Assembly: GCA_035509375.1 (NCBI GenBank)
Contig: DATJLP010000007.1
Span: forward strand, 9,848-73,847
Reading direction: 5' to 3'
Source of the DNA: Candidatus Acidiferrum sp.
GTDB taxonomy: Archaea > Micrarchaeota > Micrarchaeia > Micrarchaeales > Micrarchaeaceae
Length of the DNA stretch: 64,000 bases
Made by a program: the position numbers and the translations under genes. This document shows, one piece after another, positions 3,957 through 49,782 of this stretch. Under the pieces are notes generated by a model. It was not told the origin of the DNA, made no database searches, and worked only from the letters and a program-made list of their open reading frames with translations. Each line of letters begins with the position of its first letter. Position 1 is the stretch's first letter.

Positions 3957-4078
3957 CGCCTCGGCCGGGATTCGAACCCGGGTTTCTTGATCTGATAGAC
4001 TGCTGTCTAGGAGATTCACAAGCGGGCTGTGCATATGGCTTGACAGGCTCGTATGCTAGACCACTACACTACCGAGGC
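3957..4078 (-). tRNA. tRNA-Asp (GUC) with about 48 nt of extra sequence in two blocks (putative introns)
   Basis: Hand-folded. Acceptor GCCUCGG/CCGAGGC, discriminator G, D arm GUGU..GCAU, anticodon stem CGAGC/GCUUG, loop CUGUCA(+intron)C, T arm CCGGG-UUCGAAU-CCCGG. A 16-nt insert lies in the anticodon loop and a 32-nt hairpin insert lies between the anticodon stem and the T stem. Confidence 0.7.
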
Positions 4079-8276: not shown

Positions 8277-8573
8277 CTAGCCCCTTATAACGGAAATGAC
8301 CTTTCCGATTATCGCGTCTTTCCTCACTGGGCCGAAGGTGCGGCTGTCTACGCTCAGGCTCCTGTTGTCCCCCAATACAAGGTAGCTGCCGTCCCTTATT
8401 TTTGATATCCTCTTTATGATTATTGTTTTCCTGCCGGGATACCTGAGAACAACTATGTCTTTTTCTTTTGGCCTGCCGAACAGGTAGGAGAGCCTGCTTA
8501 CAAGTACGTAATCCCCATCCCTTACTGCTGGCTCCATGCTCCTGTCCCTTATCCTGAATATTGACAAGGGCAT
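8277..8573 (-). CDS. sodX: S26-family peptidase, NiSOD maturation protease (SodX-like)
   Basis: SMEPAV (nucleophile Ser box), KRISK (Lys box) and GDNRSLSVDSR box. It is short, has no TM, and lies directly downstream of sodN. Confidence 0.75.
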   Translation of the reverse strand: MPLSIFRIRDRSMEPAVRDGDYVLVSRLSYLFGRPKEKDIVVLRYPGRKTIIIKRISKIRDGSYLVLGDNRSLSVDSRTFGPVRKDAIIGKVISVIRG

Positions 8574-8581
8574 GGCCGGGA

Positions 8582-9076
8582 TTACAGTTTGGGCACCACA
8601 AGCGTGTGCTCCGTCGGGTATGGCGACTTTACCCTTGAGGTCTGTATGTTCTTCGTCTTCCAGAACATCTCGGCGATCTTCTGGACATTTTCAAGCAGGG
8701 CCTCCGCATCGGCAACGCTGGTGCCCTGCTTGGCCTTTGATGCAGACTTGAGGGTGTCCCACACAAGCCCGTGGAGCTCGGGGTGGGCTGTAGCATGCTC
8801 CGGCTTGAAGTAGTCGGCCCAGAGCACTCTGACCTCGTGCTTGCAGATCTCTGCATGCTGCTCCTTTACCGCAGTATATCTGATCATCTTGTTCCTTCCG
8901 TCTGTGGTCATGTCGTTGTTCTTGACAAGGTCTGCAATAAGCATGTCCATTCTCAAGACCGTGTGGGCTGCTATCTGCGCGGTATGCGGGTCGTATATTC
9001 CGCATGGGATGTCGCAGTGCGCGTACGCTACCTTGAATTTTACAATCCTGTCCAGTGCCTTTAGTACCCTGTTCAT
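8582..9076 (-). CDS. sodN: nickel-containing superoxide dismutase precursor
   Basis: The nickel-hook HCDIPCGIYDP follows a 19-aa propeptide (MNRVLKALDRIVKFKVAYA). Confidence 0.9.
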   Translation of the reverse strand: MNRVLKALDRIVKFKVAYAHCDIPCGIYDPHTAQIAAHTVLRMDMLIADLVKNNDMTTDGRNKMIRYTAVKEQHAEICKHEVRVLWADYFKPEHATAHPELHGLVWDTLKSASKAKQGTSVADAEALLENVQKIAEMFWKTKNIQTSRVKSPYPTEHTLVVPKL

Positions 9077-28120: not shown

Positions 28121-28244
28121 GCCAGGGTGGCAGAATCTGGTAACGCGCCGGTCTCGAGTTTGCAAAACTTCGAGAGCTGATCTGTGATGCAATAAGAAAA
28201 CCGGTGTCCGCAAGGACTTTAGGGTTCAAATCCCTACCCTGGCG
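28121..28244 (+). tRNA. tRNA-Ser (CGA) with about 40-nt anticodon-loop intron
   Basis: Acceptor GCCAGGG/CCCUGGC, anticodon stem CCGGU/ACCGG, loop CUCGAG|intron|A, long variable arm UGUCC-GCAA-GGACU, T arm UAGGG-UUCAAAU-CCCUA. Confidence 0.8.
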
Positions 28245-32954: not shown

Positions 32955-35900
32955 GTGGCAAATAACGCTCGTGGGCGTTTTCTAGCCATTACTGTGGCTA
33001 TAATTTTTCTGTGCTTAATCTGCCTTCCTACTATTACTACTGCAGTTTCGATACCTGTTTCCATATCAAACTACGCTTCGGTGCTGATTTCTAACCACCA
33101 GAGTTTTGCTACAAAAGGCGGGCTTCAGCAGCTTTTGATTTTAAATGCCTCCAAATTTTCCACCTACGAGAACGGCAACCTGCAGAATGTTGAATTCTTC
33201 TACTCTAACGGAACAATAATCCCATCTTGGCTGGAGGGCAATCTGAGCAACGAGTTGCAAACAACAAATCTTAACAGATCAAGCCGCATAGTGTACTGGC
33301 TTAAGCTTGCGCCAAGTATATCGGCGGGTGGCAATTACGTAGTGTATGTAGGTTTTGCCCCAAAGAACGTGAGTTTTCTGAATGGTGTTACAGTAGGGGA
33401 AGCTCCGGAACTCTCTTCGCCTTATGGCAGATATGACAATGGCGGGCAGGTATTTACAAACGGGTATTGGGATTTCAGCGGGTCAAGCTTTCCGTCAGGT
33501 ATAAACTCGATCGTCAACAACGGCACAGTATCTGTAAATAATGAGTTGACGATAATCGGAGGTAGAACGCAAACTCCTGGAGAGAATGGTGCGGCTGCTC
33601 CAAACATTATCGTCAATGAGAGCGTTGATTTCTACGGCACGCTCACCACCTCCCCGGTCGGTGATTCTTGGGGGTGGTCCGAAGATGGAATCAGCAACTG
33701 CACAAATAAGTACAATGCCCACTTGGGAGTAATTGGATGTTCTGACATATCGGTAGATTTTGAGGGCAGCGCTGGGGGGCCGAACTGCACAATAGCAGGC
33801 GGCTTTGCGCTCAGAAACGCAGGGTTTGGCGGGACCTGTAGCCTAAAAGGCGTACCTTTAAACACAGGAAATTACATCCCAGCATACAATGGCTATGCAA
33901 TATTTTCCTTTGTTTTCACGCCAGATAATGCAATTCTATACACAAACTATACCGACATGTATGCTAACATAATTTACACCCAAAACACAATAAAAGGCCT
34001 GCCATTTGCGATAGCTGTAGGTAATAATGAAGGAACATATGCACCAAATGGAGAAAAGATATACTGGCTCAGATACAGGCAGACTCCACCGAATGGAATA
34101 ATGCCGAACACATCGGTTGGTGGCGCATCCAGCGTAATAACTGCCAGATCCCCCATTACGCTGTACAACAATCAGCCGGTAGGAACTAGCAGCAACTTCC
34201 AGCAGATGTTGCCAATCAACAGTTCGAAATATACCGCGTATGAAGCAAATAACCTGCAAAATGTTGAATTCCAATATGCAAACGGGACGGTAATCCCGTC
34301 TTGGTTTGAAGGTAATCCGAGTAACGAAACGCGGGCGAGCAATTTAAACGCCTCTAATAATTTAGTATACTGGTTGAAACTTGGACCAAGTATACGCGCA
34401 AACGGTAACCTGACCATTTACATAGCGTTTGCAAATAGGAGCGTATCACTCTTGAATAACATAACAACTGGGGAAGCACCACAGCTATCATGCACAAACC
34501 CTTCAAATACGGCAACCGGCTGCGGAGTTAATCAATATGGAAAATATGACGATGGTGGTAAAGTATTTCCTAACTATTGGAATTTCAACGGTACTTCTCT
34601 TGAGGGCTTTAGTACGCCTGGTGGAAGCGGCAATTTTGTTGTAGTAAACAACGGGGTAGTTATTGGCGGTGTTTTAAATGGCACCTTCCCTTACATTTAT
34701 CGTTTCACTTATAACGCTCTTAGTTTGGGAGTCGGGATGATTGGTTATCTGAACTCGTCAAACGGGTTGTTCATTTTTAGAGGCTCCAATCCAAATGAGG
34801 ATGGTATAGTTTCGGCATTTAACTCTTCAATGTCACGATACGAGATTTTTAATTATAATAATACTTCGGGTTTATCATCATTTGAAAACACCGGTGTGCC
34901 ATACAGTACAAAACATATAGCATTGTTGATTTACGGTAACAGTACATCAATAAGAGGATATGCCGCTGGATCTTTTAAAGCCAGTTCAACGGACTATGTG
35001 CAACAGCAGAGCACGTCAATCTACGTTCAGGGAGGGGCAGGGTACGCTCAGGTAATTTTCACTGCGAATACTCCGCCTGATGGAATAATGCCAACTACGA
35101 GCCCCGCGGCCTCTAATGTGGTGCTGGGCCTTTCCCTTTCTGCCAACCAGATTGTTTACGGGCAACCGGGCACAATTACCGCAATGGCCTCCAATAATGG
35201 CATAATAAACATAGAACTAAACGGAAATGTTGTAGCTACAGGTAGCTCTTCTACTTCGTATCAGGTTTGCCAGGCACGGAACAGCAGTTGCCCAGCCGCT
35301 GGAACTTACAGTGTAGTGGCCAGTTCACCAGACGCAAACTATATAGTAAACAAAACTCTTGTAATTGTTCAGGCAACCCCGCAATTAACGCTGTCTGTTC
35401 CATCCAACTACAGCTTCGACCAGCAACCTGGAAACGTAATCTTTGGGATAAACACAATTGACAACCAGCTTAACGTCACGCTCTCTGGTGCGGCAATAGG
35501 AACAACAAACCTGGCGTCAAGCGCCCTTACAGAGCCATTCCCAGGAAACTACTCCGCGACGTTATACACTCCTGGAAATGCAAACTACACTCCTGCGTCT
35601 AGGACCGCAAACTTCAGCATCTTCGCCCAGATGACCAATATAACCGGTATAGGGAGGCTGCCTGATGCCTTGGCATTCGATTCCTGCAACGGATACATAT
35701 ATGTTGCAAATTGGGGATCGAACACCGTTTCTGTGATAGACAACCTTACAGTCCTTGGCAACATAACAGTAGGGATTGGGCCTAAGGCCCTGCAGTTCGA
35801 TAGCGCAAACTGTAAGGTTTATGTGGCTGATAATGTATCAAATGACGTAAAGGCACTTGTAGGTTTCAGTGTTGTAAGCACAACGTACGTTGGAGCCGAT

Positions 35901-38900
35901 CCCTTTGCGATGGCGCTCGATCCGGTTAATAAACAGCTGTATGTGGCTGATTTTGGCTCGGGGCAGGTTTCCTTATTAAATACGAACACGACAAACAGCA
36001 CACTGGTTGGGAACATAATGGTTGGTGCGCAGCCAATAGCAATACTCTACAATCCAGTGAAGAATGATACCTATGTGGCTGATTTTGGCTCGAATAATGT
36101 TGGTATACTCGGCAAGAACGCCGTGAAGCACCTCGTTGCGGTTCAGGATGAGCCTGATGCGCTCGCGTACAACAATAGCGGCTGCGTATATGTTGCAAAT
36201 TATGGATCTGCAACGGTATCAGTCATTTGCGAAAACGTGACGGTAGTTGTGACAAACCAGACCAGCCCATCGCCTCTGCCGCCACCTGGAGGTTGCTGGT
36301 TTGGTTGCGGCCCGGGTGGCCCGTGGGTGTGGCCGCAGCCGAGCCCTATAGGCCCGTTCCCATACATATGCGATCCGTTCACTGGATACTGCTATTGGAC
36401 GCCGCCAGGCGGCCTCATAGGATGGAATCCGAAACTCCCTCCCTACTATACCGATATATGCGATTGCCACGGGCAGCAGTTGTTAGAGATAGCGCAGAAG
36501 CCTGACGGCAGTTATTACACATTCTTCAATTTACCTGGTACGGCGAAAGATGTGGGGCAGCTGATTGAAGAGACCGATGGTTTTGGACTGATACCAGACA
36601 ACCTTGACCTAGGAGATGTGCTGCCCGATCAGTTGCAAGGGGCATACCAGTTTGTCACCGTGGTTGTGCCGGTAGCCTACGATGCGGCACAGGTGGCAGC
36701 ATTGATTTATGCTATGGGCAATACAATAACACTCAACCCAGAGATAGCCAAAAGTGTATTTGTTGACGGCAACAATGGTATAGTGTACAATGGCCTCGTG
36801 GTGGATTTTGCAGATACGAGCAACCAGATACTCTTTAATTATACGGATGAGGCAACAAATGCAACAAACATGTTTGTAAACCAGACTCTTCAGCAGTTCA
36901 CAGATACGGAATCGTATCTTGTAGAAAGGCAGATACTAGCAAATTCCTCAGTAAGGGAATCGCTGGTTGGCAATACATTTAACGTGATTAATGCAGACTT
37001 TAATGCGATAGCGATTGTTGGACCAGGACAGGTCGCGTACACAGTGATGGCCCTCAATACCACAAATGCAATAAGCGATAATATAGAGCTCACTAACCTG
37101 ACAAGCGATTCTGCAATTCCTATATCAATGATAGACCAATCCGGAGTTCCAATATTAAATTTTGATGGAAATGTTTTACTTATCAATACAACTGTTTCGG
37201 GAACCAATGTTGGTGTGCAGATACCTGTAAAAGGTAACAGCACCACAGGCATTGTTGTATTCGTTGCAGGGGGACTGCCATCTCCAATTCCGGGAGAGTG
37301 GGGCGTAAGGGCTTTCGGTAAAGACCAATATTCAAACAATAACACAATAACCTATTCGCATGTGCAGATTGGCACATACAACGATACAGAAATAATACAA
37401 AACCCGGGAGGATACCGTGCAGAGCTCTCGTATATGATTGACTTGAGTGTCTTCTGCTTTGAGCTCTACATACATGTTCCTTTCTGGCCAGTGACATATA
37501 ATCTCACCTTTGTAGCCCAAGGTCTGCCATCGGGCACGCCGTGGGGAGTCTCGCTGTTTGGCATACCATTATCGACAACTTCAAATAGCATAACGTTACA
37601 CCTGCCGAATGGTGATTGGCAATATGCAATTGATGCTCCGTTGAACTATTCGGCAAAGCCGCCAGGAGGGGCGGCTCTGATAAATAACTCTGGTGGCACA
37701 ATATACATAAACTTCAGCAGGCTGCCTTCCAACACTAGATACGCGCCTTATCCGATACCGGTGGGGAAGAACCCGATAGCTCTTCTGTTTGATAAGAATG
37801 ATTGCTTGCTTTACGTTGCCAACTACGGATCCAATTCTGTCTCTGTGGTGCAGGGGCTTGTGAACATAGGAAATCTCTCTGTGGGGGTCAGGCCTACAGC
37901 TTTGGCACTGGCAAATGACACCGGCTGGTTGTATGTGGCAAATAAAGGATCTGGCAGCCTCAGTGTTATAAACATAACCAGGGAGATCGCGACGCTTAGT
38001 GTTGGGGCAAACCCGGTGGCGATGGTTTATGACCCTCTCAACAAATATATCTACGTGTCGCAACAGAATGCATCGAGCAGCATCGTCTCTGTAGTTTATC
38101 ATCTTAGTGTGCTTACTGGCGGTTCAACCAGTTTTGTTGTACCATCAAGCAGCACGCAGATACCAGTAAACAACACTTGCACAGGGGGTGAGTATGTGCT
38201 CATAAATGACACATTATACGAATACATACAAACAGTGTCATCACCCAACAATGCTGGAAACTTCACCACTGCCAACATCATTTCCACTTCGGCAAGCAAC
38301 CTCACCTTAACACTCCCATCCAACTATAAGTCATTCTTCTTCACCACAAGTTCCTACTTAGGGGAGACCACCACAACGCCAAAGACGAGTTGGAGCGCCT
38401 TTACCTACAATGTAGAGAAAACCAACTTGAATGAGATCCGTAATCTCGGGGTTACTTATGTTTCGCAGAATGCATCAGCAACAGGGATTTCACTTTCCAA
38501 CTCGCTTCAGGTAAGCGTGAACGTCGGAGGGGGGCCGATAGCGATGGCAGGCCTGGCTTCTAGTCTTCCATACGCAAACGTAATTGCCTACAACAGCGTT
38601 GGCCTATCATCAGAGGGAACAGGATCTCACAGCCTTCAGCTTTCATTCCCGGTGAATGTGGCAGGGGATGCAGCGTACATACTAGGCGCGGTGAGTTCAG
38701 GCAGCGTGCAGCCGAATGTCACAATGCCAAACGGGTGCAGTATGGCCCAATCAGCATCTGTAGACTTGAGCCATGAGGGGTGGGTGTTCGCTGCCAACTG
38801 CATATTCTCAAGCGGCGGCACGTTCAGCGCGAACTACATATACAAAGGAGCTGGCACAGCCACAATGGCGGTCTGGGTCTTTAACACCTCTGCCAATACG

Positions 38901-38903
38901 TAA
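32955..38903 (+). CDS. giant secreted surface protein (1982 aa) with duplicated DUF2341/ConA-like modules and YVTN beta-propeller repeats
   Basis: GTG start preceded by GGGGGAG. Signal-peptide-like N-terminus. Two homologous modules (NLQNVEF.Y.NGT.IPSW.EGN...VYWLKL.PSI) and two blocks of ...YVAN.GS..VSVI... repeats. There are very many N-x-S/T sequons. Confidence 0.85.
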   Translation: MANNARGRFLAITVAIIFLCLICLPTITTAVSIPVSISNYASVLISNHQSFATKGGLQQLLILNASKFSTYENGNLQNVEFFYSNGTIIPSWLEGNLSNELQTTNLNRSSRIVYWLKLAPSISAGGNYVVYVGFAPKNVSFLNGVTVGEAPELSSPYGRYDNGGQVFTNGYWDFSGSSFPSGINSIVNNGTVSVNNELTIIGGRTQTPGENGAAAPNIIVNESVDFYGTLTTSPVGDSWGWSEDGISNCTNKYNAHLGVIGCSDISVDFEGSAGGPNCTIAGGFALRNAGFGGTCSLKGVPLNTGNYIPAYNGYAIFSFVFTPDNAILYTNYTDMYANIIYTQNTIKGLPFAIAVGNNEGTYAPNGEKIYWLRYRQTPPNGIMPNTSVGGASSVITARSPITLYNNQPVGTSSNFQQMLPINSSKYTAYEANNLQNVEFQYANGTVIPSWFEGNPSNETRASNLNASNNLVYWLKLGPSIRANGNLTIYIAFANRSVSLLNNITTGEAPQLSCTNPSNTATGCGVNQYGKYDDGGKVFPNYWNFNGTSLEGFSTPGGSGNFVVVNNGVVIGGVLNGTFPYIYRFTYNALSLGVGMIGYLNSSNGLFIFRGSNPNEDGIVSAFNSSMSRYEIFNYNNTSGLSSFENTGVPYSTKHIALLIYGNSTSIRGYAAGSFKASSTDYVQQQSTSIYVQGGAGYAQVIFTANTPPDGIMPTTSPAASNVVLGLSLSANQIVYGQPGTITAMASNNGIINIELNGNVVATGSSSTSYQVCQARNSSCPAAGTYSVVASSPDANYIVNKTLVIVQATPQLTLSVPSNYSFDQQPGNVIFGINTIDNQLNVTLSGAAIGTTNLASSALTEPFPGNYSATLYTPGNANYTPASRTANFSIFAQMTNITGIGRLPDALAFDSCNGYIYVANWGSNTVSVIDNLTVLGNITVGIGPKALQFDSANCKVYVADNVSNDVKALVGFSVVSTTYVGADPFAMALDPVNKQLYVADFGSGQVSLLNTNTTNSTLVGNIMVGAQPIAILYNPVKNDTYVADFGSNNVGILGKNAVKHLVAVQDEPDALAYNNSGCVYVANYGSATVSVICENVTVVVTNQTSPSPLPPPGGCWFGCGPGGPWVWPQPSPIGPFPYICDPFTGYCYWTPPGGLIGWNPKLPPYYTDICDCHGQQLLEIAQKPDGSYYTFFNLPGTAKDVGQLIEETDGFGLIPDNLDLGDVLPDQLQGAYQFVTVVVPVAYDAAQVAALIYAMGNTITLNPEIAKSVFVDGNNGIVYNGLVVDFADTSNQILFNYTDEATNATNMFVNQTLQQFTDTESYLVERQILANSSVRESLVGNTFNVINADFNAIAIVGPGQVAYTVMALNTTNAISDNIELTNLTSDSAIPISMIDQSGVPILNFDGNVLLINTTVSGTNVGVQIPVKGNSTTGIVVFVAGGLPSPIPGEWGVRAFGKDQYSNNNTITYSHVQIGTYNDTEIIQNPGGYRAELSYMIDLSVFCFELYIHVPFWPVTYNLTFVAQGLPSGTPWGVSLFGIPLSTTSNSITLHLPNGDWQYAIDAPLNYSAKPPGGAALINNSGGTIYINFSRLPSNTRYAPYPIPVGKNPIALLFDKNDCLLYVANYGSNSVSVVQGLVNIGNLSVGVRPTALALANDTGWLYVANKGSGSLSVINITREIATLSVGANPVAMVYDPLNKYIYVSQQNASSSIVSVVYHLSVLTGGSTSFVVPSSSTQIPVNNTCTGGEYVLINDTLYEYIQTVSSPNNAGNFTTANIISTSASNLTLTLPSNYKSFFFTTSSYLGETTTTPKTSWSAFTYNVEKTNLNEIRNLGVTYVSQNASATGISLSNSLQVSVNVGGGPIAMAGLASSLPYANVIAYNSVGLSSEGTGSHSLQLSFPVNVAGDAAYILGAVSSGSVQPNVTMPNGCSMAQSASVDLSHEGWVFAANCIFSSGGTFSANYIYKGAGTATMAVWVFNTSANT

Positions 38904-41302: not shown

Positions 41303-41321
41303 GAGGAGAAGAAGTTTGCAA
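41303..41321 (+). repeat. 5' strand of 23S rRNA processing stem
   Basis: GAGGAGAAGAAGTTTGCAA is complementary over 16 nt to 44157-44172. Confidence 0.7.
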
Positions 41322-41329
41322 CATTATAA

Positions 41330-44155
41330 ACCACCTAGGGGATGGCTTGGCTGTGGTAGCGAAGAAGGACGTGGCAAGCTGCGATAAGCCCAGGGTAGCC
41401 GCAGGTCAGGCGTTGAACCTGGGATTTCCTAACTGTGCACAGCAATGTGCGCGCATACTCGGGGAACTGAAATATCTTAGTACCCGAAGGAGAAGAAATC
41501 ATTAGAGATGCGGTGAGTAAAGCGATTAAAAGCCGCAGAGGGCGTACCGAATCCCGTCTTGGCAACAGGATGGGAGATGTGGCGCTGCGTTTCATCCAAT
41601 CGAATAGCCGAACTTTCTGGAAAGAAAGGTCATAGAGAGTGACAACCTCGTAGGCGAAGTTCTATTGGAGATTGCAGCAAAAGAGTAGTTCTGCCTGAAT
41701 ACGCAGAACGAATACGGGGGCATTAAACTCCAACCCTAAATATTGACCATAGACCGATAGCGAACAAGTAGCGTGAGCGAAAGCTGAAAAGAACCCACAC
41801 GCGTGGGATTGAAAAGATCTGAAACTAGGTGGTGACACGAAGGTAAGGCGCGGAAGGAATGAAGTGCATTGAAGAGAAGATGCGAAAGCATCCATCGTTA
41901 TGCATGGAACAGTGTCTTATCATTCTTCTTGAAGCAAGAGCCAGGGAGTGTGTGGTTGTGGCGAGCCGAAAGGCGTAGCGAAAGCGAGAGCTCGCAGATC
42001 CGAGGAGCATGGTATGAAAATGCCAGAGTCACCATCACACGACCCGAAGCCGCTGCGAACTACTCGTGACCAAGGCGAAGCTAGGCTAACGCCTGGTGGA
42101 GGCCCGCAACCTGTCATGGCATGTCCTGTTGGGTGAGTTACGAGTAGCGGCGATATACCACTCGAGCGCGGCAATAGCGGGTCCCCTCTGAAGTATCTTT
42201 AGGATAGCTCCGGCTGAGCTTGCACATGCGGTAGAGCTACCGAATAGGAGGTAAGGGTTCGAAAGGGCCCACCTTCTTATCAAACTCCGAATGCGTGTGC
42301 TGCGTAGACGCCGGGAGTCGGCCATGTTGGGTAAGCTAGCGTGGCGAGACTGCAAAGATAGTGACTAAGGTTAAGGTCCCCAAATCCTAGTTAAGTGTAA
42401 CAAAGGTTAGAAGCTCTTTAGACATCTGGGAGGTAGGCTCAGAAGCGGCCACCCTTTAAAAAACGCGTTATAGCGTACCAGTTGAGGGGCATCTGACCGA
42501 AAATATACGGGGCTAAACTAGGTACCGATACCCTAGAGTCGAGAGACTGGTAAGGGGGCGTGCTGCACGGCACGAAGTATGTCCGAAAGGACATATGGAC
42601 CGTGTAGCAGTGAAAATCCTGGTATTAGTAACAGCATTTATGGGTGAGAATCCCATACACCGAAAGCACAAGGTTTTCTTCGCGACGCTCGTCAGCGGAG
42701 AGTTAGGCGATCCTAAGGTGCAGGCCAATCACCTTGCACCAAAAGGGAAGCTGGTTAATATTCCAGCCCGTAGGATGTAGGCGTGGCAACACAAGGTAGA
42801 TTTCTGACGCTTGGGGATAGTCCCGCAAGAAAGTGCAAATGGCTGCGGAGTCTCGTTATGAGGAGAAGCAGCTAAATGAACATTGGGATGAGTTCCTGAG
42901 CCCGTGAAAAGGGAATCTGCAACGATCATTCTACTCCGTACCTAGATCTAGTACAAGTGCTGCTGGCTGAAAAGGCCAAGGTGTGACGGAATAACCGTGG
43001 TTAGGGAAATCGGCAAATTGGTGGCGTAAGTTATCGACAAGCCATGTCTGCGTATAGTATGCGCAGATAGCATTTACAAGGGAACAGCGACTGTTTATCA
43101 AAAACACAACTCACCGCAAAGCCGAAAGGCTAAGTACAGTGGGTGACGCCTGCTCACCGCCGGTACGTGAAAGCCCTTTTCAAGGGGAATAAGCGCCGGC
43201 AAAGAGCGGGAGTAACACTGACTCTCTTGAGGTAGCGTAATACCTCGTCACTTAATAGGTGACTTGCATGAATGGCGTAACGACTGTTCCACTGTCCCAA
43301 CCACGGATCCGGTGAACTTACTGCGCGGTGAATATGCCGCGATCTCTTAGTGGGAAATGAAGTCTCCATGAAGCTTGACTATAGCCTGTAGTTGTTGTGC
43401 AATGGATTATGCATAGAGTAAGTGGGAGCGTCGAAATGTGGGCTGCGGCCCACATGGAGCGACAATGTAACACCACTCTTAATCTGTTTCGCAGCTAACC
43501 CGTAAGGGAACAGCCGCAGGTGGATAGTTAGACTGGACGGTTATTTTCGATAAGGAAACGAAAATGACCAATGCTCTGCTTAGGCGGGTTGGAAACCCGC
43601 CGGTAAGCGCAAAGGCAAATGCAGGGCTGACTGTATCTCGAAAAGCGTGGGATGCAGACACGAAAGTGGGGCTTAACGAACGTTGGTAGCCTTTTTAATG
43701 GGGCTCCAAGCTGTCAAACAAGTTACTCTGGAGGTAACCGATTCGTCGCGGGTGAGAGTTCACATCGACCTCGCGCATTGATACATCGATATGGGCCTTC
43801 GTTATCCTGGTGATGCACAAGTCACCAATGGTTGGACTGCTCGTCCATTAAAAACGAACACGAGCTGAGTTCAGTACGTCGCGAGACAGTACGGTAATAT
43901 CTACTAGGAGTGTTAGTGTCGGAGGATAAGATCCCCCTAATACGAGAGGAACAGGGGATCGGCGCCTCTAGTGTACCGGTTGTGAAAGCATCGCCGGGTA
44001 GCCACGCGCCAAATGGATAAGTCCTGAAAGCATCTAAGGACGAAGCTGTACCCGAAACGAGACACTGGGCCGGTTCAATTATAGAACTTTGATAGGACGG
44101 GTGCGCAAACAGGGAGCTCACGCGACCTGTGAACATACCGTTACTAAAGGCCAAC
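41330..44155 (+). rRNA. rrl: 23S (LSU) rRNA, stand-alone, divergent
   Basis: 5' domain GAAGGACGUGGCAAGCUGCGAUAAGCC. GTPase-centre, PTC and sarcin-ricin (AAUACGAGAGGAAC) regions are recognisable. The 3' part contains GAAAGCAUCUAAG. Ends are estimated to within about 20 nt from the flanking stem. Confidence 0.9.
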
Positions 44156-44156
44156 T

Positions 44157-44172
44157 TTGCAAACTTCTTCTC
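44157..44172 (+). repeat. 3' strand of 23S rRNA processing stem
   Basis: TTGCAAACTTCTTCTC is the reverse complement of 41306-41321. Confidence 0.7.
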
Positions 44173-44206: not shown

Positions 44207-44590
44207 CTATATTACGATTACGTTATGATATCCTAGCTTCTTGATCTCTTTGAAAGCGGTATCATTTGTTACCAGCTTTTCGTTATTTGCTATTGCTATT
44301 CCGGCAATTAAAATATCGAATTCATCTATCAATTTCCCTTCATTTTTCAAATTCCTGTATATTTCTGCGGATTTTTCTATCTCGCGCTCGCCCAAGGCAT
44401 AAACATTAAGATCTCTTAACATATCGTCGATGGATTGCTGCTCAGAGAACTTTTTACCTTTAAGCAGTTCATACTCGCCTATTATGGTGATTGCCGCATT
44501 CTCTTTACCTTTATAACTCTTGATCGTCTCGATTGCATCCTTCTGACCACTAAGAGCGTCTATAAGCAAGTTTGTATCAAAAACTACCAT
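44207..44590 (-). CDS. vapC: PIN-domain toxin VapC
   Basis: MVVFDTNLLID, an acidic Glu in GEYELLKG, a D in DILIAG and a TND near the C-terminus give the PIN acidic quartet. Confidence 0.85.
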   Translation of the reverse strand: MVVFDTNLLIDALSGQKDAIETIKSYKGKENAAITIIGEYELLKGKKFSEQQSIDDMLRDLNVYALGEREIEKSAEIYRNLKNEGKLIDEFDILIAGIAIANNEKLVTNDTAFKEIKKLGYHNVIVI

Positions 44591-44594
44591 TTCT

Positions 44595-44813
44595 TCACTT
44601 AACTAATCGGCTTTTGCCTGATGCGCGCCTTCCATCTGTTACCTCTTTCTTCCAGATAGCAGCGTCGCTATCACTTATTGTGCCGAAAAATTTTTCAAGC
44701 TGATTTATATCGCCCTTCTTGCCTCTGCCCTGTATAAGTTCCTCTATCATTTTAGAGAAAGATAAATCTTTTTTCATCTTTCGGAGTTCGCTATACACGA
44801 TATCTGACACCAC
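44595..44813 (-). CDS. vapB: VapB-type antitoxin (archaeal small antitoxin family)
   Basis: The pattern ISDxVYxELxKxKKDxSFSxxIxxL is typical of archaeal VapB partners. GTG start. 4-nt gap to vapC. Confidence 0.7.
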   Translation of the reverse strand: MVSDIVYSELRKMKKDLSFSKMIEELIQGRGKKGDINQLEKFFGTISDSDAAIWKKEVTDGRRASGKSRLVK

Positions 44814-44914
44814 TATGACCTTAGACGTTTTAACACCTATATATATTTCTATATATAGATATAAATACTTGCTGCTTAAACTTTGGATTTTTATTTTACT
44901 GCTATATTGGAAGC

Positions 44915-44930
44915 AAGTATTTAAATACTT
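44915..44930. promoter_or_regulatory. perfect 16-bp palindrome AAGTATTTAAATACTT in the vapB / pilin-like intergenic region
   Basis: Read directly. A third AAATACTT copy lies at 44863-44870, extended to an 11-nt inverted match (44863-44873 versus 44912-44922). Confidence 0.5.
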
Positions 44931-44970
44931 ATTTGTGTAAAATATATTTACTTAAGTAAAAGGTTGTTGC

Positions 44971-45348
44971 ATGGTGGGTAAAACGATAGAACTAGCAGGT
45001 GTTGTAAAGTATTTGGTTGTTCCGGTCTCTCTCTTTTTCGGCCTACTTAGCATTGCGAATGGTGCACAGGTTGGGCAGGTGCTGCAGATAGTTACTGAGC
45101 TAGGCACCATAAAAGGCATACTTGCGCAGATAGGTCCAACGCTGAGCGCCATACTCTTTATAGTCGCTGGAGTATTCTACGCCCTGGGCCAGATGCTGCC
45201 TCCGGACAAGAGGGCCAACTTCCACACAACCGCAGTCAATATAGTGATTGGTGCCATAGTCGTAGGAGTCCTGAGCGTTGCCTCTACCTCTCTGGCCACC
45301 GCATCCACACATCTGCTCAGCAACGTTACATCAAACTCGGTCTCTTAG
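44971..45348 (+). CDS. VirB2/TrbC/CedA1-like pilin candidate (signal peptide plus two-helix hairpin)
   Basis: 125 aa. N-terminal h-region ending SIANGA, then helix IGPTLSAILFIVAGVFYALGQML, basic loop PPDKRANFH, then helix AVNIVIGAIVVGVLSVA. Confidence 0.5.
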   Translation: MVGKTIELAGVVKYLVVPVSLFFGLLSIANGAQVGQVLQIVTELGTIKGILAQIGPTLSAILFIVAGVFYALGQMLPPDKRANFHTTAVNIVIGAIVVGVLSVASTSLATASTHLLSNVTSNSVS

Positions 45349-45355
45349 TGGTTAA

Positions 45356-46387
45356 TTGCTAGGATACAGCATCGCAGTAAGCGTGATTGCGATAATGATA
45401 AGCATAGGAGGCATCATCTTCGGCCTTGGGTATGCGATGGATAACGCAAAGCTCAAGAACTTTGGCAGGGACGAGCTCTTCCAGTCTTTCATAAACGGAG
45501 CCATAGTTGGCGTATTGTTCCTGTTTTTCAGCCCGGGTGGCATAGGGACGGGCATAATAAACGGAATTGTCTCGGGAACGGGGGCCACGGCGAGCTGCAC
45601 GGGCTACATGAGCACGAACTATGCGATATGCTTCGCGTCAAACTACCTCGTTGGCGTTCAGGAAGTCAGCATAAACGGCGCCAGCTACCCCTCGCTGCTG
45701 GACTCGTCGCTCGAGCTCCTGGTACCTGTATCAGCAGTCTACATAGTGCTGGGCTTCATATCGTCGGCGCAGCTGAGCCTGGGGGTGATATCCGTATCGT
45801 TCTCAACAATCCTTGCTCCGGTACTCGCACAGCAGGATTTCATAATAAATGCGCTCACCTTTTCGATAATAAGCATATACACGCAGTCGGCACTGCTTGG
45901 CGTTATATCGGTGGTGGCCGTGCCCATCCTCCTGCCGGTCGGAATAGTGCTCAGGACATTCTATCCGACCAGAAAGCTCGGGGGCACGATAATCGCCATA
46001 GCGATAGGCCTCTTCGCCGTCTTTCCACTCACATACCTGCTAGACGCGCAGATAACGTCAAGTTTTGCGGCTTCGTTGAACCAAAACTCGCTGAACACCT
46101 TTACGATACAGGCAGAGGGTGTCCAGAATGCGCTTCTCTCAGTAGGCGGGAGCGCGATATCGGCCAACACGATAACGGGAACCGCATTGAGCCTGATAAA
46201 CTCGGCTTCGAGCTTGGCTAGCTCCTTCTCAAGCGTGCTAAACGAGCTTGTTGCATGGCTATCTATACTCATAATCGAGGTGTTCTTCTTCCCGGTCTTC
46301 AGCATAATTTTGACTGTGACTTCGATAAGGGAACTGGCCAAGATCCTTGGCTCTGAGGTCTCCTTCGGGCGCTTTGACATATTTTAG
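45356..46387 (+). CDS. polytopic membrane protein, VirB6/TrbL/CedA-like candidate
   Basis: 343 aa with at least 6 hydrophobic helices. TTG start 7 nt after the upstream stop. Confidence 0.5.
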   Translation: MLGYSIAVSVIAIMISIGGIIFGLGYAMDNAKLKNFGRDELFQSFINGAIVGVLFLFFSPGGIGTGIINGIVSGTGATASCTGYMSTNYAICFASNYLVGVQEVSINGASYPSLLDSSLELLVPVSAVYIVLGFISSAQLSLGVISVSFSTILAPVLAQQDFIINALTFSIISIYTQSALLGVISVVAVPILLPVGIVLRTFYPTRKLGGTIIAIAIGLFAVFPLTYLLDAQITSSFAASLNQNSLNTFTIQAEGVQNALLSVGGSAISANTITGTALSLINSASSLASSFSSVLNELVAWLSILIIEVFFFPVFSIILTVTSIRELAKILGSEVSFGRFDIF

Positions 46388-46394
46388 TGATTAT

Positions 46395-47138
46395 ATGGAG
46401 TTCACAAAAGAGAGGGCGCTGATGTGCGCGATAGCAGCGCTCGACTCTCTCTTGATGATTATCACGATTTTATCAGGCTCTGCATATCTGGCGGTGGTTG
46501 AAGGGATGCTACTGCTCGCAACATTCTCAATTTACAAGATGTGGTACCTCATAGAAGCCAAGATTATAGAGAAAACCAACCTTGTGCAGCTCTTTAACGG
46601 TTTTGAGCTTGATGGGAGCAGGTCTGCGATAATATCCAGGGTTGCCAACGGCTATACCTCAACCTCTGCTGCAAGGGTCGACTCTCTCGGCAGTGTTGCG
46701 GTCGACAGGGAGAGGGTGGAGAGGCTTATAGAGCATCTGAACAGTCCATTCAAGCTTGTCCTTCAGGTAGAGAGGTTCGACGCCTCAAAGCTCCTGGAGA
46801 GGCTGGAGACGAAGAGGAGCATCAAGGAGATAGAGCTGTCCAGAGTGCACGGGCCTTCATCGGGGAAAGGGCTGATCACCTCTAACAGGCTAAAGAGCGA
46901 GATATCGCATTTGGAGCAGGAGATAGCTGGCATAAAAGGCGGCGGCATGCCATTGAAGCTTTCCTACTATATGATGACGTGCGCCACAGCGCAGAGCAGG
47001 TACAAGGCTGAGGAGCTCTCTAGAATGCAGCTGGGAGAGCTTGTTTCTGAGTTCGACGCAACGTTTGGCACGAAATCTTCCGTGCTTTCTAGCGATAGCC
47101 TCTTAAAGCTGATGAAATTCGATTCGATGATTGCTTGA
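46395..47138 (+). CDS. membrane-anchored protein (TM hairpin plus soluble domain), candidate VirB3 / VirB4 N-terminal-domain equivalent
   Basis: ATG 7 nt after the upstream stop. Two N-terminal helices (ALMCAIAALDSLLMIITIL and VVEGMLLLATFSIYKMW) followed by about 190 soluble aa. Its stop overlaps the TTG of the ATPase ORF. Confidence 0.45.
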   Translation: MEFTKERALMCAIAALDSLLMIITILSGSAYLAVVEGMLLLATFSIYKMWYLIEAKIIEKTNLVQLFNGFELDGSRSAIISRVANGYTSTSAARVDSLGSVAVDRERVERLIEHLNSPFKLVLQVERFDASKLLERLETKRSIKEIELSRVHGPSSGKGLITSNRLKSEISHLEQEIAGIKGGGMPLKLSYYMMTCATAQSRYKAEELSRMQLGELVSEFDATFGTKSSVLSSDSLLKLMKFDSMIA

Positions 47139-48235
47139 TAATAAAATCAAACTCTAGGAAGGCGGCCATTTATTCAAATATATTCCCAATGTCAGAGCCC
47201 CCTCTTGAAGAGGAGGACCAGGAAGGCGGCCTCTATGTGGGAAAAACATCGATCTACAAGCTGCCTTTCTTCCTGAACCAGGACCGGCTCATAAACCCGC
47301 ACATATCGGTCCTTGGGATGACCGGCTCGGGAAAAACCTATCTTGTGAAGAGCCTGATAGCGAGATACCGCTTGTTCAAGGAGCATAACGTGCTGATTAT
47401 AGACTGGAACTCGGAGTATACAGGGCTTGTCTCGCACCTCCACGGAAGAACTACAAAGGTGGAGGTGGGGAGGATGCCTAGCGTATCTGAGGTTATTTCG
47501 GGCCTGAACAGCATAGACCTATCTGCTGTAGGCGATGGCTCCGAGAAACTCTCTTTGGCCTCGACCTTCTTGGCCGGTTTGCTGAAATTCATGCTTTCTC
47601 TAGGGCCTGACAGGAGGCTTGACACGGTCGTGGTGATAGATGAGGCGTGGAAGCTGCTTAATTTTGACAAGAATATTGGTAAGCTCTTTAGGGAAGGCAG
47701 GAAGTTTGGTTTTGCCGTGATAGCCGCAACCCAGTTGCTCAATGACGTGGACAATGAGGTGCTGGCAAACGCGGCGTGCAGTTTTGTTTTCAGGTTACAG
47801 GGGTCGGAGAATTTTGAGAGGTTGGTCTCTTCCGAGTTGATAGATGAGGATTCGGTCGGTGTGGTAAGGTCGCTGAAAAGGGGGAGCTGCCTGGTCTCCT
47901 TGGCCTATAAAGGAAGAGACCTGTCAAGGAGGTTTGTTGTAGACAGGGTTAGCGGCTTTTCGATGGGCAATTATTCTATAAATGGTGATAAATTGGTGGT
48001 GAATATATCTGCGCATAAGCTTGGGGCGGTTCTTGATGACTCTCACCTGAGCAGCGAGGCAAAAGTCAGGATAGGAAGGTTCTTTGAAGAGAATAGCAAG
48101 GGTGTGGATTTGCAGCACCTAGTAACATTCCTTTTTGCTGCTGGACTTGGCAGGCCCGACATATTCTCTCTTGCCAGGGCCCTGGGCATAAACGATGCGG
48201 CAGTGGCCATGGCTATGGAGGTTGTGAAATGTTGA
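47135..48235 (+). CDS. VirB4/TrbE/CedB-class (HerA-FtsK superfamily) ATPase domain protein
   Basis: Walker A GMTGSGKT (47315-47338), Walker B VVVIDEAWKLL (about 47627-47659), and VIAATQ. An alternative ATG lies at 47189. Confidence 0.75.
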   Translation: MIIKSNSRKAAIYSNIFPMSEPPLEEEDQEGGLYVGKTSIYKLPFFLNQDRLINPHISVLGMTGSGKTYLVKSLIARYRLFKEHNVLIIDWNSEYTGLVSHLHGRTTKVEVGRMPSVSEVISGLNSIDLSAVGDGSEKLSLASTFLAGLLKFMLSLGPDRRLDTVVVIDEAWKLLNFDKNIGKLFREGRKFGFAVIAATQLLNDVDNEVLANAACSFVFRLQGSENFERLVSSELIDEDSVGVVRSLKRGSCLVSLAYKGRDLSRRFVVDRVSGFSMGNYSINGDKLVVNISAHKLGAVLDDSHLSSEAKVRIGRFFEENSKGVDLQHLVTFLFAAGLGRPDIFSLARALGINDAAVAMAMEVVKC

Positions 48236-48873
48236 AAAGGGCCAAAAAACCGGATTGGAAATTCAGTTCTTCCTTTTGTGTTAAAGGCAAATTGATTTCT
48301 GCCATTTCAGAGGTTGAGAAGACGCTTGGCAGCGTGCCCGAAATAAAGCAGGTTAGCTGCGGTGAAACAATCGGGTTTGAACTTTTGAACGGAGGCGATG
48401 GCAAACAGGTAGTTGAGCTTGATAGCAGTTCTGTGCGTCTGGTTTTCTATTTCAATGAGCAGAACAAGAGGAGATATTCGGCCTGTCTCTTGAAGTTTTT
48501 CTCAATATTGGCTATTGTTAACGATCATTATACTTTCGATATAAAGCCATTGTACAGCTATGTGATTGAGTCGCTGAGGTGGTCCCTTCCCTATGCAGAG
48601 GCGCAGGAAAACGACCCTAAAGCCGTGGCCCGCCTTTCGTGGAACCTGAGGAATATGACATTTGCAAATGCGAGTCTTTCGCAAGAGATTTTTGAAAATA
48701 AAAGAAGGATGGATGACATTCAAAGCAAATTGGCAGACTACGGAGCCTTTTGCAAGAAAGTGGTCGGCTCGCTCTCCCAGAAAAACGGTAATGTTCTGAA
48801 AGATCTGGAGGCAAGTTTTGGCATAGGTCAGGAATTGGGGAAGAAGGTGTGTGCAATGCTGGAAGGCGGGTGA
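48229..48873 (+). CDS. hypothetical soluble protein of the T4SS-like operon
   Basis: 214 aa. Its ATG overlaps the upstream stop (ATGTTGA). No motif recognised. Confidence 0.45.
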   Translation: MLKRAKKPDWKFSSSFCVKGKLISAISEVEKTLGSVPEIKQVSCGETIGFELLNGGDGKQVVELDSSSVRLVFYFNEQNKRRYSACLLKFFSILAIVNDHYTFDIKPLYSYVIESLRWSLPYAEAQENDPKAVARLSWNLRNMTFANASLSQEIFENKRRMDDIQSKLADYGAFCKKVVGSLSQKNGNVLKDLEASFGIGQELGKKVCAMLEGG

Positions 48874-49594
48874 AATGGTGCAGCGGGTCATCAGTTTTCT
48901 GGTTCTGGGGGCTCTTGTTGCGGCAGGGGCTTGCATCTCTTTGATTAAGGGGTTTGGCAGTTTCTCTTTGGCGGTGTTGGGAGGGGCTGCATGCTATGCC
49001 CTTATAATTTTATCCGAGTGGGGCGCCTCGAGAGGGTCTATTTTTATACGAGATAAAATTGAGTTGAAACAGAGAAAACCGCTTGACGAGTCTAGAGTAT
49101 TGGAAAGTTTGGGCGCAGCGGGGCGTAAAAACGATAACTTGTTTGTAACGAAAGGGCTGGCGGTCGACGTTGAAGATTTATTTAACGTGATGAAGATAGA
49201 ATCGGCGGTTGCAGGCAACAATTCTATAGGAGGCATGGAGGATTCGCTGTCTCTTCCTCTGTTTAAACTTTTAGAGGGTATGAAAGTCTGCATTTCTGGG
49301 AAATTTATAGGCGGCGGCTTGTCGAAAGAGATGATAGCTGCTAGAATTCTGTATGGCAAGTGGATTTCTGGAGAGAACTGTAAGGTTTCAAAAAATGTTG
49401 ATGGCATATTACGGGCTAATTTGACATCATTTGCGGATAGGTGCATTGGAGCGGGGGATTTGAAAACTATTGCAGTGTTTGATGCAGAGGAGGAGTTTCG
49501 CTTTTGGTCAGTTTTGGAGGGTTTTTCGAAAGATAGCGCGATGCTGCTACTGCGAGCCTCCTCCGGCGATTTGGAGGTGTTGCGATGCTGGTAG
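48851..49594 (+). CDS. hypothetical membrane protein of the T4SS-like operon
   Basis: Two N-terminal helices (VISFLVLGALVAAGACISLI and LAVLGGAACYALIILSEW). The likely ATG at 48875 is 1 nt after the upstream stop. Confidence 0.45.
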   Translation: MQCWKAGEMVQRVISFLVLGALVAAGACISLIKGFGSFSLAVLGGAACYALIILSEWGASRGSIFIRDKIELKQRKPLDESRVLESLGAAGRKNDNLFVTKGLAVDVEDLFNVMKIESAVAGNNSIGGMEDSLSLPLFKLLEGMKVCISGKFIGGGLSKEMIAARILYGKWISGENCKVSKNVDGILRANLTSFADRCIGAGDLKTIAVFDAEEEFRFWSVLEGFSKDSAMLLLRASSGDLEVLRCW

Positions 49595-49782
49595 TGCTAC
49601 TTTTTGCATTGAAAGTGGGGGTGTTTTCAGGATTATTTACAATCAACATGTCTAGTGCCCTGTCGCTTGCAGGAGTATCTAAAGATTATGAAGAAGGTAG
49701 TTCGTTTAAAGCGTTCTGTAGCGGAATTGTTCTGATAATTTGCTGTGCTCTCATATATGCGTTGGGTCTTGTTTTGAAATAG
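49585..49782 (+). CDS. small two-helix membrane protein of the T4SS-like operon
   Basis: 65 aa. Its ATG overlaps the upstream stop by 10 nt (ATGCTGGTAG). Confidence 0.4.
   Translation: MLVVLLFALKVGVFSGLFTINMSSALSLAGVSKDYEEGSSFKAFCSGIVLIICCALIYALGLVLK

Follow-up and report, generated by a model that had tools for sequence, protein, structure and literature searches.

A seven-gene operon, located on the plus strand of a 64-kb stretch of a Micrarchaeota chromosome (hereafter the window, meaning the whole stretch analyzed), was identified as a candidate relative of the archaeal DNA-transfer machines. It encodes a VirB2/TrbC-class pilin (ORF1, for open reading frame 1) and a P-loop ATPase of the FtsK/HerA superfamily (ORF4), and these two are inherited together with five further proteins, membrane or accessory, in a single unit with translational coupling. 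The Ced and Ted systems of other archaea have been described as domesticated type IV secretion systems (T4SS) built of VirB2-, VirB6- and VirB4-like parts that lack mutual sequence similarity (PMC9905601). We lean, with modest confidence, towards the view that the Micrarchaeota operon is likewise a domesticated, minimal, Ced/Ted-like transfer apparatus of the conjugative-pilus type, derived from a T4SS.

Conservation and organization of the operon

An initial annotation, made by inspection of the sequence, had described seven plus-strand ORFs at 44971-49782; all of them lie where it placed them, the recomputed junctions are again +7, +7, -4, -7, +1 and -10 nucleotides (nt), and the motifs it had listed (SIANGA, PPDKRANFH, GMTGSGKT, VVVIDEAW and ATQ) are present in the translations. 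Synteny in related genomes, which it had recommended checking, proved to be conserved: the same seven-gene order was found in at least 12 distinct Micrarchaeota contigs (L003-L009, L011-L013, L027 and the source contig L001), with gene sizes of about 120-140, 330-355, 240-265, 345-465, 190-242, 150-247 and 60-65 amino acids (aa), in order. Since 12 distinct contigs thus agree in the order and size of the genes, the seven ORFs are real genes and not chance reading frames. The flanks vary by genome, being citrate synthase, malate dehydrogenase and aconitase genes in some, a ribosomal-protein operon or tRNA synthetase genes in others, and no integrase, relaxase or coupling protein was found near the operon in the related contigs. 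This constant order within differing flanks indicates a vertically inherited cellular operon rather than a mobile element. The operon was present in every Micrarchaeota lineage sampled here and its divergence between genomes tracks the lineages; the named relatives of ORF1, ORF2 and ORF4 are nearly all assigned to Micrarchaeota, Micrarchaeia or Micrarchaeaceae, and the species-representative genomes carrying the ATPase are Micrarchaeota metagenome-assembled genomes (MAGs). Identity to the window proteins over the loci is about 50-70% for ORF1, 35-70% for ORF2, 24-61% for ORF3, 29-51% for ORF4, 21-27% for ORF5, at most 26% for ORF6 and 13-30% for ORF7; because identity drops along the operon in this way, ORF1 is its most constrained part.

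The coordinates of the genes are given in Table 1. The stop codon of ORF3 overlaps the start of ORF4 by 4 nt, and Shine-Dalgarno-like motifs stand upstream of the starts of ORF5 (GGAGGT), ORF7 (GGAGGTG, 6 nt upstream of the ATG), the ATG of ORF6 (GGTGA) and the ATG of ORF3 (GTGAT), which supports ATG as the start of both ORF3 and ORF6, and ORF7 as a genuine gene. A hydropathy scan gave a signal-like segment plus two transmembrane (TM) segments in ORF1, about seven in ORF2 and two in ORF7, with an N-terminal TM hairpin in both ORF3 and ORF6, while ORF4 and ORF5 are soluble. The G+C content (GC) of the operon, 0.46-0.52, equals the window average, in agreement with the earlier remark that its composition resembles that of core genes. 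The AT-rich region ahead of ORF1, with its TATA-like boxes, is presumed to hold the operon promoter.

Table 1. Genes of the operon in the window, with its presumed promoter region, and the gene pairs that extend the operon in related Micrarchaeota contigs
Feature	Contig	Position	Strand	Remarks
Presumed operon promoter region	window	44814..44970	+	AT-rich intergenic; TATA-like boxes TTTAAATA, AAAATATATTT; GC dip to 0.38
ORF1, VirB2/TrbC-class pilin precursor	window	44971-45348	+	125 aa
ORF2, polytopic (~7 TM) membrane protein	window	45356-46387	+	343 aa, TTG start
ORF3, TM hairpin plus soluble domain	window	46395-47138	+	247 aa from ATG; 263 aa from TTG at 46347
ORF4, FtsK/HerA-superfamily P-loop ATPase	window	47135-48235	+	366 aa, TTG start
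ORF5, soluble protein	window	48229-48873	+	214 aa
ORF6, TM hairpin plus soluble domain	window	48875-49594	+	239 aa from ATG; 247 aa from GTG at 48851
ORF7, small two-TM protein	window	49585-49782	+	65 aa
~95-aa ORF plus second ATPase	L006	10534-13027		
~95-aa ORF plus second ATPase	L011	8398-10911		
~95-aa ORF plus second ATPase	L012	8493-10991		
~95-aa ORF plus second ATPase	L013	8609-10774		
~95-aa ORF plus second ATPase	L027	10874-13422		

The pilin and the ATPase

ORF1 has the layout expected of a conjugative pilin, namely a signal sequence, two hydrophobic helices and a short charged loop, as the initial annotation had noted and as both the hydropathy scan and an AlphaFold2 (AF2) model confirmed. 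In the model (predicted local distance difference test, pLDDT, 82.8), helices at residues 5-31, 33-75 and 78-124 correspond to a signal helix followed by a two-helix hairpin. The hydrophobic N-terminal segment ends in small residues (A/G-x-A/G), with cleavage expected around SIA/NGA-Q, and the mature part is nearly invariant among relatives, its helices being joined by the invariant loop PPDK(K/R)ANFH; its length agrees with the roughly 70-100 aa of mature pilins in this class. The proposed relation to VirB2/TrbC-type pilins was borne out at the family level: among 60 relatives searched against Pfam (E<=0.01), T4SS_pilin was matched by 58 (best 4e-7) and TrbC by 34 (best 4e-6), whereas every other Pfam family was matched by at most four. 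These matches run nearly the full length of the profiles (positions 4-63 of 71 and 16-89 of 98), and none of 10 reversed-sequence controls matched T4SS_pilin or TrbC at E<=0.05, so the match is not an effect of composition. In profile-profile alignments (hhalign) with six reference proteins of R388 and pTi (VirB2, VirB3, VirB4, VirB6, VirB8 and VirD4), a comparison of low power given references only 1-2 sequences deep, VirB2 alone gave a signal with ORF1 (R388 TrwL plus Ti VirB2, P=0.0038), and the alignment starts just past the signal peptide in both. A sequence and profile search of the Protein Data Bank (PDB) with the ORF1 family returned nothing meaningful. Judged by its family profile, ORF1 is a VirB2/TrbC-class pilin, and as such it would presumably form a filament.

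ORF4 carries Walker A GMTGSGKT, Walker B VVVIDEAW and the motif REGRKFG, with the P-loop at residue 61, and matches two Pfam families above their gathering scores (DUF87, 54.8 bits against 23.2; AAA_10, 52.8 bits against 27.5). Its best NCBIfam model is CedB (3e-18; 65.8 bits against an equivalog cut-off of 700), which is also the top curated model for 40 of 40 relatives (best 4e-24); the anti-phage HerA, TraC, CedD and VirB4 models follow, HerA_antiphage being matched by all 40 relatives as well. Against the curated VirB4 model (TIGR00929), ORF4 reached 39.8 bits for a cut-off of 643. Among the R388/pTi references, the ORF4 family gave a signal with VirB4 and VirD4, and its best annotated plasmid matches are the VirB4-like CD1110 and TraC. 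The DEAW form of Walker B is shared by ORF4 and TraC/VirB4-like proteins (among them the TraC-like L017 and L018), whereas the HerA references have DEAH or EEAH.

The domain organization of ORF4 is reduced. It has neither the N-domain of VirB4 (about 400 aa in VirB4s of about 800 aa) nor the HAS-barrel, since the protein starts only about 35 aa ahead of the P-loop region, and the TM segment plus N-domain typical of CedB is absent as well. What is present is the ATPase core and a C-terminal domain of about 100 aa, for which Pfam gave nothing consistent and which contains a helix-hairpin-helix (HhH)-like LRxLGIxDxxIA motif; the match of this motif to the HhH repeats of Topo V is weak (E=0.007). 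A similar L(R/S)xLGIxDxxIA-type motif, HhH-like or helix-turn-helix (HTH)-like, was observed at the C-termini of both ORF4 (47900-48235) and ORF5 (48750-48873), and the two ends did not align significantly by hhalign (P=0.034). As a hint from these motifs, the C-terminal element of ORF4 and ORF5 could possibly bind DNA. No NurA, Mre11, Rad50 or defense effector gene adjoins the operon at any of the loci.

Regarding the assignment of ORF4 in the initial annotation to the VirB4/TrbE class, the part that stands is a Ced/T4SS-related P-loop ATPase with DEAW; the part that does not is VirB4 proper, given the missing N-domain and the closer relation to HerA-like proteins. The same annotation had made its reading depend on whether the ATPase groups with VirB4/CedB or with HerA, and here ORF4 sides with HerA-like proteins over bacterial VirB4, and CedB is its best curated model. 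Previous work has placed CedB and CedD, too, in the HerA clade of ATPases; both have a TM segment and an N-domain resembling parts of the VirB4 N-domain (PMC11868833), and therefore a grouping with HerA as opposed to CedB is no clean test for refutation. By its profile matches, the accurate label for ORF4 is a CedB-like ATPase with a HerA-clade core, not a member of the CedB family.

The membrane and accessory proteins

ORF2 is polytopic (about seven TM) and adjoins the pilin gene in 12 of 12 loci; its AF2 model is a membrane protein of about seven helices (pLDDT 77.8; predicted template-modeling score 0.67). It has two invariant cysteines (C81 and C92), in a loop that is probably extracellular, and a conserved motif, LPxGxxLRxFxxTRxxGG. 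Relatives are numerous and uncharacterized, with 2358 clusters at E<=1e-3 among 1.84 billion protein representatives. The initial annotation had likened ORF2 to VirB6/TrbL/CedA; the polytopic topology and the place beside the pilin hold, but no such relation appeared in Pfam, PDB searches, Foldseek or hhalign, so that ORF2 may be said to occupy the place of VirB6 or CedA only by analogy of position and topology. A homology of the pilin to the N-terminal hairpin of ORF2, of the CedA/CedA1 or VirB6/VirB2 type, was likewise not supported: hhalign placed the pilin hairpin on ORF2 residues 9-76 without significance (P=0.047, probability 1%).

ORF3, which as originally described consists of a TM hairpin and a soluble domain (hydropathy), has about 190 aa of soluble, partly coiled-coil sequence after the hairpin and always stands directly upstream of the ATPase gene, including in the variant loci L014 and L015 discussed below. 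It has no Pfam or NCBIfam family or PDB match, and hhalign found nothing between ORF3 and ORF6. CedB and CedD carry a TM segment and N-domain in cis, and TrsD of Patescibacteria is a separately encoded VirB4-N-domain-like gene (PMC12102498); by analogy with these, we propose that ORF3 may anchor the ATPase in the membrane or represent its N-module in detached form.

No known relatives were found for ORFs 5-7, in which the initial annotation had recognized no motif; as it had also noted, two of them are membrane proteins, ORF6 and ORF7. ORF5 has a coiled-coil middle and an HTH-like C-terminus, with weak hints of HTH type; its positional orthologue was recovered by BLAST in most loci (21-27% identity) and by hidden Markov model (HMM) in L014 and L027. 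ORF6 evolves fast, and its positional orthologues vary from 150 to 247 aa; PDB searches with the ORF5 and ORF6 families gave nothing meaningful. ORF7 is not called in the public gene calls on the window's own contig, yet its position, size and two-TM pattern are conserved, with positional orthologues of 60-65 aa in L003-L008, L011, L012 and L027, and in size and topology it is analogous to the small Ced membrane proteins.

In more distant Micrarchaeota (L006/L010, L011, L012, L013 and L027) the operon continues with an ORF of about 95 aa and a protein of 720-754 aa, neither of which is present in the window. The latter has Walker motifs and weak matches to CedD (9e-8), the VirB4-like CD1110 and TraD, and is a distant paralogue of ORF4. 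This two-ATPase form mirrors the pairs CedB plus CedD or VirB4 plus coupling protein, and the addition of a second ATPase in some Micrarchaeota strengthens the T4SS/Ced-like reading for the family.

Comparison with known systems

The closest parallels are found in the archaeal systems. Like the Ted system of Thermoproteales (TedC, TedA, TedB; PMC9905601), the Micrarchaeota operon is a chromosomal, relaxase-less cluster with a cleavable signal and a two-helix VirB2-class pilin, a pilin gene beside the gene of a polytopic protein, an ATPase of the FtsK/HerA superfamily, and parts that escape plain sequence search; TedC is a substrate of signal peptidase I (PMC9905601). However, TedB is of the VirB4 type with N-domain, whereas ORF4 is a 366-aa core nearer HerA/CedB; TedA has been tied to VirB6 by profile-profile comparison, a link that ORF2 does not show; the neighbors are ParA-like, Rad50 and HerA proteins in Ted and ORF3, ORF5, ORF6 and ORF7 here; and the phylum is Thermoproteota in one case and DPANN in the other. 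In the Ced system of Sulfolobales (CedA, CedA1, CedA2, CedB, CedD/CedE), small two-TM proteins also accompany a polytopic one, CedB is the best curated model for ORF4 and 40 relatives, and some Micrarchaeota have two distant paralogous ATPases. In contrast, CedB and CedD carry their own TM segment and N-domain, the score of ORF4 is 65.8 against 700 bits, and CedA1 is apparently exported unprocessed whereas ORF1 has a signal peptide. The Ced genes are induced by ultraviolet light and act together with the Ups type IV pili (PMC9905601, PMC11868833).

Bacterial systems offer a second comparison. In Patescibacteria, also named the candidate phyla radiation (CPR), epibiotic growth depends on a chromosomal T4SS that lacks a relaxase (PMC12102498). 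It resembles the Micrarchaeota operon in occurring lineage-wide on the chromosomes of an ultrasmall, host-dependent lineage and in encoding, near an ATPase, a VirB2-like pilin recognized by the same Pfam models (PF18895, PF04956). It differs in having a genuine VirB4 that falls within the MPF-FATA class, detectable VirB3, VirB6 and VirB8 homologues, and variable multi-copy pilin arrays as opposed to one highly conserved pilin. With the T4SS of the MPF-T class (R388 Trw, Agrobacterium VirB) the operon shares the pilin layout, the pilin gene in first place with the ATPase gene a few genes downstream, and an ATPase core that aligns to ORF4 over about 220 columns (hhalign P=2e-17); but no VirB3, VirB5, VirB6, VirB8-11 or VirD4 is detectable in it, and both outer-membrane parts and the VirB4 N-domain are lacking. 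As for the HerA proteins of repair and anti-phage defense, they have the highest profile similarity to the ORF4 core (P=8e-25), and DUF87, the 'HerA central domain', scores above threshold; the differences are the absence of the HAS-barrel and of a NurA, Mre11, Rad50 or effector partner, the membrane nature of the ORF4 partners, and Walker B DEAW instead of DEAH/EEAH.

Proposed function and alternative explanations

We hypothesize that ORF1 would be exported by Sec, cut by signal peptidase I and kept in the membrane as a two-helix hairpin, from which it would polymerize into a hollow filament or a short conduit. ORF2 may serve as the membrane platform or channel at the base of this filament, and the TM hairpin of ORF3 may tether a hexamer of ORF4 to that platform, providing in trans the TM segment and N-domain that CedB, CedD and VirB4 have in cis. 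Hydrolysis of ATP by ORF4 would then drive extraction and assembly of the pilin, the threading of a polymer through the channel, or both; given the superfamily of ORF4, this polymer would most likely be DNA, moved to or from a neighboring cell, either a conspecific or a host archaeon. Because relaxase, coupling protein and integrase are absent from the operon of this lineage, the system appears to serve the cell and not a mobile element, as do Ced, Ted and the chromosomal T4SS of Patescibacteria.

A number of results weigh against a Ced/Ted-like apparatus. ORF1 itself stays below the Pfam gathering scores of both pilin families (T4SS_pilin, E=0.002, 18.6 bits against 26.6; TrbC, E=0.0035, 18.0 bits against 27.9). 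The structural likeness to VirB2-like proteins that the initial annotation anticipated did not appear either: Foldseek of the ORF1 model against the PDB, a search of low power for two-helix proteins and made with a model that kept the signal peptide, gave no conjugative pilin and nothing at E<=0.001, with generic helical hairpins on top. ORF4 is far below all curated NCBIfam cut-offs; in the PDB profile search HerA-like proteins (1.5e-20) come ahead of VirB4 (3.4e-11), and hhalign favors three HerA-like proteins (P=8e-25) over five VirB4/TraC proteins (P=2e-17 over 224 columns). In a neighbor-joining tree, which is indicative only because it has few references, with the HerA ones chosen from the query matches and CedB, CedD and TedB left out, the Micrarchaeota and DPANN ATPases form one clade (72%); its sister is a HerA-like protein (81%), and the bacterial VirB4/TraC group lies elsewhere in the tree. 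For ORF2, no TrbL/VirB6 match was obtained in Pfam with the protein itself or with 65 close or 68 remote relatives, NCBIfam and PDB sequence searches gave no match, Foldseek of the AF2 model against the PDB reached only unrelated helical proteins (best E 0.076), and hhalign against R388 VirB6 (TrwI) gave P=0.41. ORF3 gave no hhalign signal with VirB3, the VirB4 N-domain or VirB8. Remote relatives of ORF2 form arrays of six tandem paralogues (318-1457 aa) on other archaeal contigs (L019, 5849-13312; L020, 5786-18288), with neighbors lacking Pfam annotation and no pilin or ATPase nearby, and the ORF2 family is thus not a dedicated T4SS part. Such arrays recall the tandem extended VirB6 paralogues of Rickettsiales, without homology being shown. 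Finally, two variant modules (L014, 4058-9234; L015, 5047-8548) combine ORF3-like genes with a 520-543-aa ATPase of the same family, L014 having two ORF3-like genes in tandem plus an ORF5-like gene; neither has a pilin or ORF2 nearby, which indicates that the ATPase module can work in another context.

Some of these observations would fit a pilus-less membrane translocon, in which ORF4 as a hexameric pump of the FtsK/HerA type, docked by ORF3, acts on a channel made of ORF2 with ORF1, ORF6 and ORF7, and moves DNA or protein across the single membrane; ORF1 would then be related to pilins but stay in the membrane, as happens in monoderm T4SS without pili. The HerA-clade ATPase, the generic nature of the ORF2 family, which also occurs without an ATPase, and the lack of any pilus match by Foldseek are in line with this, and the conservation of ORF1 (50-77% identity) is unusually high for an exposed pilin, the VirB2 arrays of Patescibacteria averaging 25% identity (PMC12102498). 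On the other hand, ORF1 has the full pilin layout (signal peptide, amphipathic-plus-hydrophobic helix, basic loop and second hydrophobic helix) and covers almost the whole length of two pilin family profiles, and Ced and Ted pilins of like layout form pili (PMC9905601). We take such a translocon to be a rather doubtful explanation, albeit one deserving attention. The HerA affinity of ORF4 could also be read as a membrane-anchored, HerA-type module of DNA repair or anti-phage defense, with lineage-specific partners unrelated to secretion, since its top PDB sequence matches are defense-associated and repair HerA proteins, HerA_antiphage is matched by 40 of 40 relatives, and in the tree a HerA-like protein is the sister of its family. 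This seems improbable to us for a protein with no HAS-barrel N-domain, with Walker B DEAW and not DEAH/EEAH, and without a nuclease, Sir2 or other effector partner, encoded among genes of which five out of seven specify membrane proteins, one of them of pilin class, and which show a strict vertical conservation unlike the patchy spread typical of defense islands.

Synteny and gene content led us to reject the readings of the locus as a mobile element or a provirus. It is very unlikely that the operon is the border or a remnant of an integrated conjugative plasmid or integrative and conjugative element, a possibility for which the initial annotation had left room. The ATPase does show weak matches to conjugative ATPases, and the operon is immediately preceded by a VapBC pair and an AT-rich patch; however, the gene calls at about 1-58 kb of the window contain no integrase, relaxase or coupling protein, local HMM and phmmer searches of the window ORFs detected neither a second ATPase nor VirD4, the GC equals that of the host genome, 2.9 million viral contigs yielded only two weak relatives, and the operon stands beside tricarboxylic acid cycle genes, ribosomal-protein operons or tRNA synthetase genes depending on the genome, and has diverged in step with the lineages. 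A provirus of an archaeal virus with a membrane, in which ORF4 would be the packaging ATPase and the small hydrophobic proteins virion membrane proteins, could account for the matches of ORF4 to phrog_7035 (1e-22), to phrog_2666, 'terminase large subunit' (1.6e-20), and to the B204 packaging ATPase of Sulfolobus turreted icosahedral virus (7e-6). We give it hardly any credence, given that capsid, integrase and other viral genes are all missing, IMG/VR contains hardly any relatives, and the seven-gene order is kept in housekeeping contexts over deeply diverged genomes.

Genomic surroundings

The guess of the initial annotation that the DNA comes from a DPANN-like lineage was right, as the source is a chromosome of Micrarchaeota, which belong to DPANN. 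The window sequence matches part of a 75-kb metagenome contig without differences. We also observed that NCBI files an ORF1 protein identical to that of the window as 'Candidatus Acidoferrum sp.', and a related ATPase as 'Acidoferrales bacterium' (P0112, P0042, L027); archaeal 23S rRNA, PCNA, TFIIB and archaeal ribosomal protein genes on these contigs indicate that Micrarchaeota contigs were binned into bacterial MAGs. The Pfam-marked gene calls at about 1-58 kb of the window include ribosomal proteins, TFIIB, PCNA, TruD, Sua5 and a CDC48-like AAA protein, together with glycosyltransferases, cytochrome bd oxidase and fumarase. These calls contain neither an integrase nor a relaxase nor a coupling protein (att repeats were not searched for), and local HMM and phmmer searches detected no second HerA/VirB4/VirD4-type ATPase among all window ORFs. 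The earlier statement that relaxase, VirD4 coupling protein and integrase are missing is therefore borne out by the gene calls and the local HMM searches, and so is the view of a chromosomal, non-mobile locus, there being only housekeeping genes in this part of the window and a gene order that is kept in changing neighborhoods.

Other features were noted in the window. An archaeal 23S rRNA gene stands alone at 41312-44166 (+), with no 16S or 5S gene anywhere in the 64 kb, which indicates that the rRNA genes are unlinked. Between this gene and the operon, in an AT-rich patch (GC 0.38), lies a VapBC-like pair at 44207-44813 (-), made of a PIN-domain gene (44207-44590) and a small partner (44595-44813), which is absent from this place in related genomes. 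Two tRNA genes were identified by Rfam, at 3957-4078 (-) and 28121-28244 (+), both missed by ARAGORN; their length of 122-124 nt suggests that they contain introns. The former adjoins a gene of the LAGLIDADG_3 homing-endonuclease type at 4089-4835 (-). A protein of 1982 aa (32955-38903, +), whose sole Pfam mark is a faint 'Lactonase' and whose gene is followed by a GDSL lipase gene, is probably a giant surface protein of a type common in DPANN. Lastly, a nickel superoxide dismutase gene (8582-9076, -) adjoins a small S24/S26-type peptidase gene (8277-8573, -), a pair that is unusual for an archaeon and was possibly acquired by horizontal transfer.

Implications for Micrarchaeota

We found no prior description of this Micrarchaeota cluster in the literature; it is not mentioned in the papers on Ced and Ted (PMC9905601, PMC11868833, PMC11823120), on the T4SS of Patescibacteria (PMC12102498), on Micrarchaeota genomics (PMC12892359) or on DPANN cryo-electron tomography (PMC11329633). 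By the latter method, filamentous connections and nanotubes have been seen between Micrarchaeota (ARMAN, Microcaldus ARM-1) and their hosts, and in Micrarchaeon ARM-1 the intercellular nanotubes (6.7 nm outer diameter, 4.4 nm lumen) are accompanied by a barrel-like docking platform, with no genes assigned to these structures (PMC11329633). It is conceivable, though in our opinion unlikely, that the operon encodes the Micrarchaeota side of this host bridge, either as the conduit itself or as a docking or import machine for the nanotubes and filamentous connections. If that were true, it would be the archaeal counterpart of the Patescibacteria T4SS that is essential for epibiotic growth, and would let the symbiont acquire DNA, nucleotides or other macromolecules of the host.

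More broadly, we regard the operon as a candidate for the machine by which Micrarchaeota exchange material with other cells. The analysis also exposes two large unannotated protein families, the ORF2 membrane family and the ORF3 family. If the Ced/Ted-like reading is true, domesticated conjugation-type machines such as Ced and Ted would extend from Thermoproteota to DPANN, and the parallel with the chromosomal T4SS of CPR bacteria would suggest that reduced symbiont genomes have retained such machines convergently. For the exchange between DPANN archaea and their hosts, the operon offers a concrete candidate, with one highly conserved pilin-class protein and one or two ATPases of the DNA-pump class.

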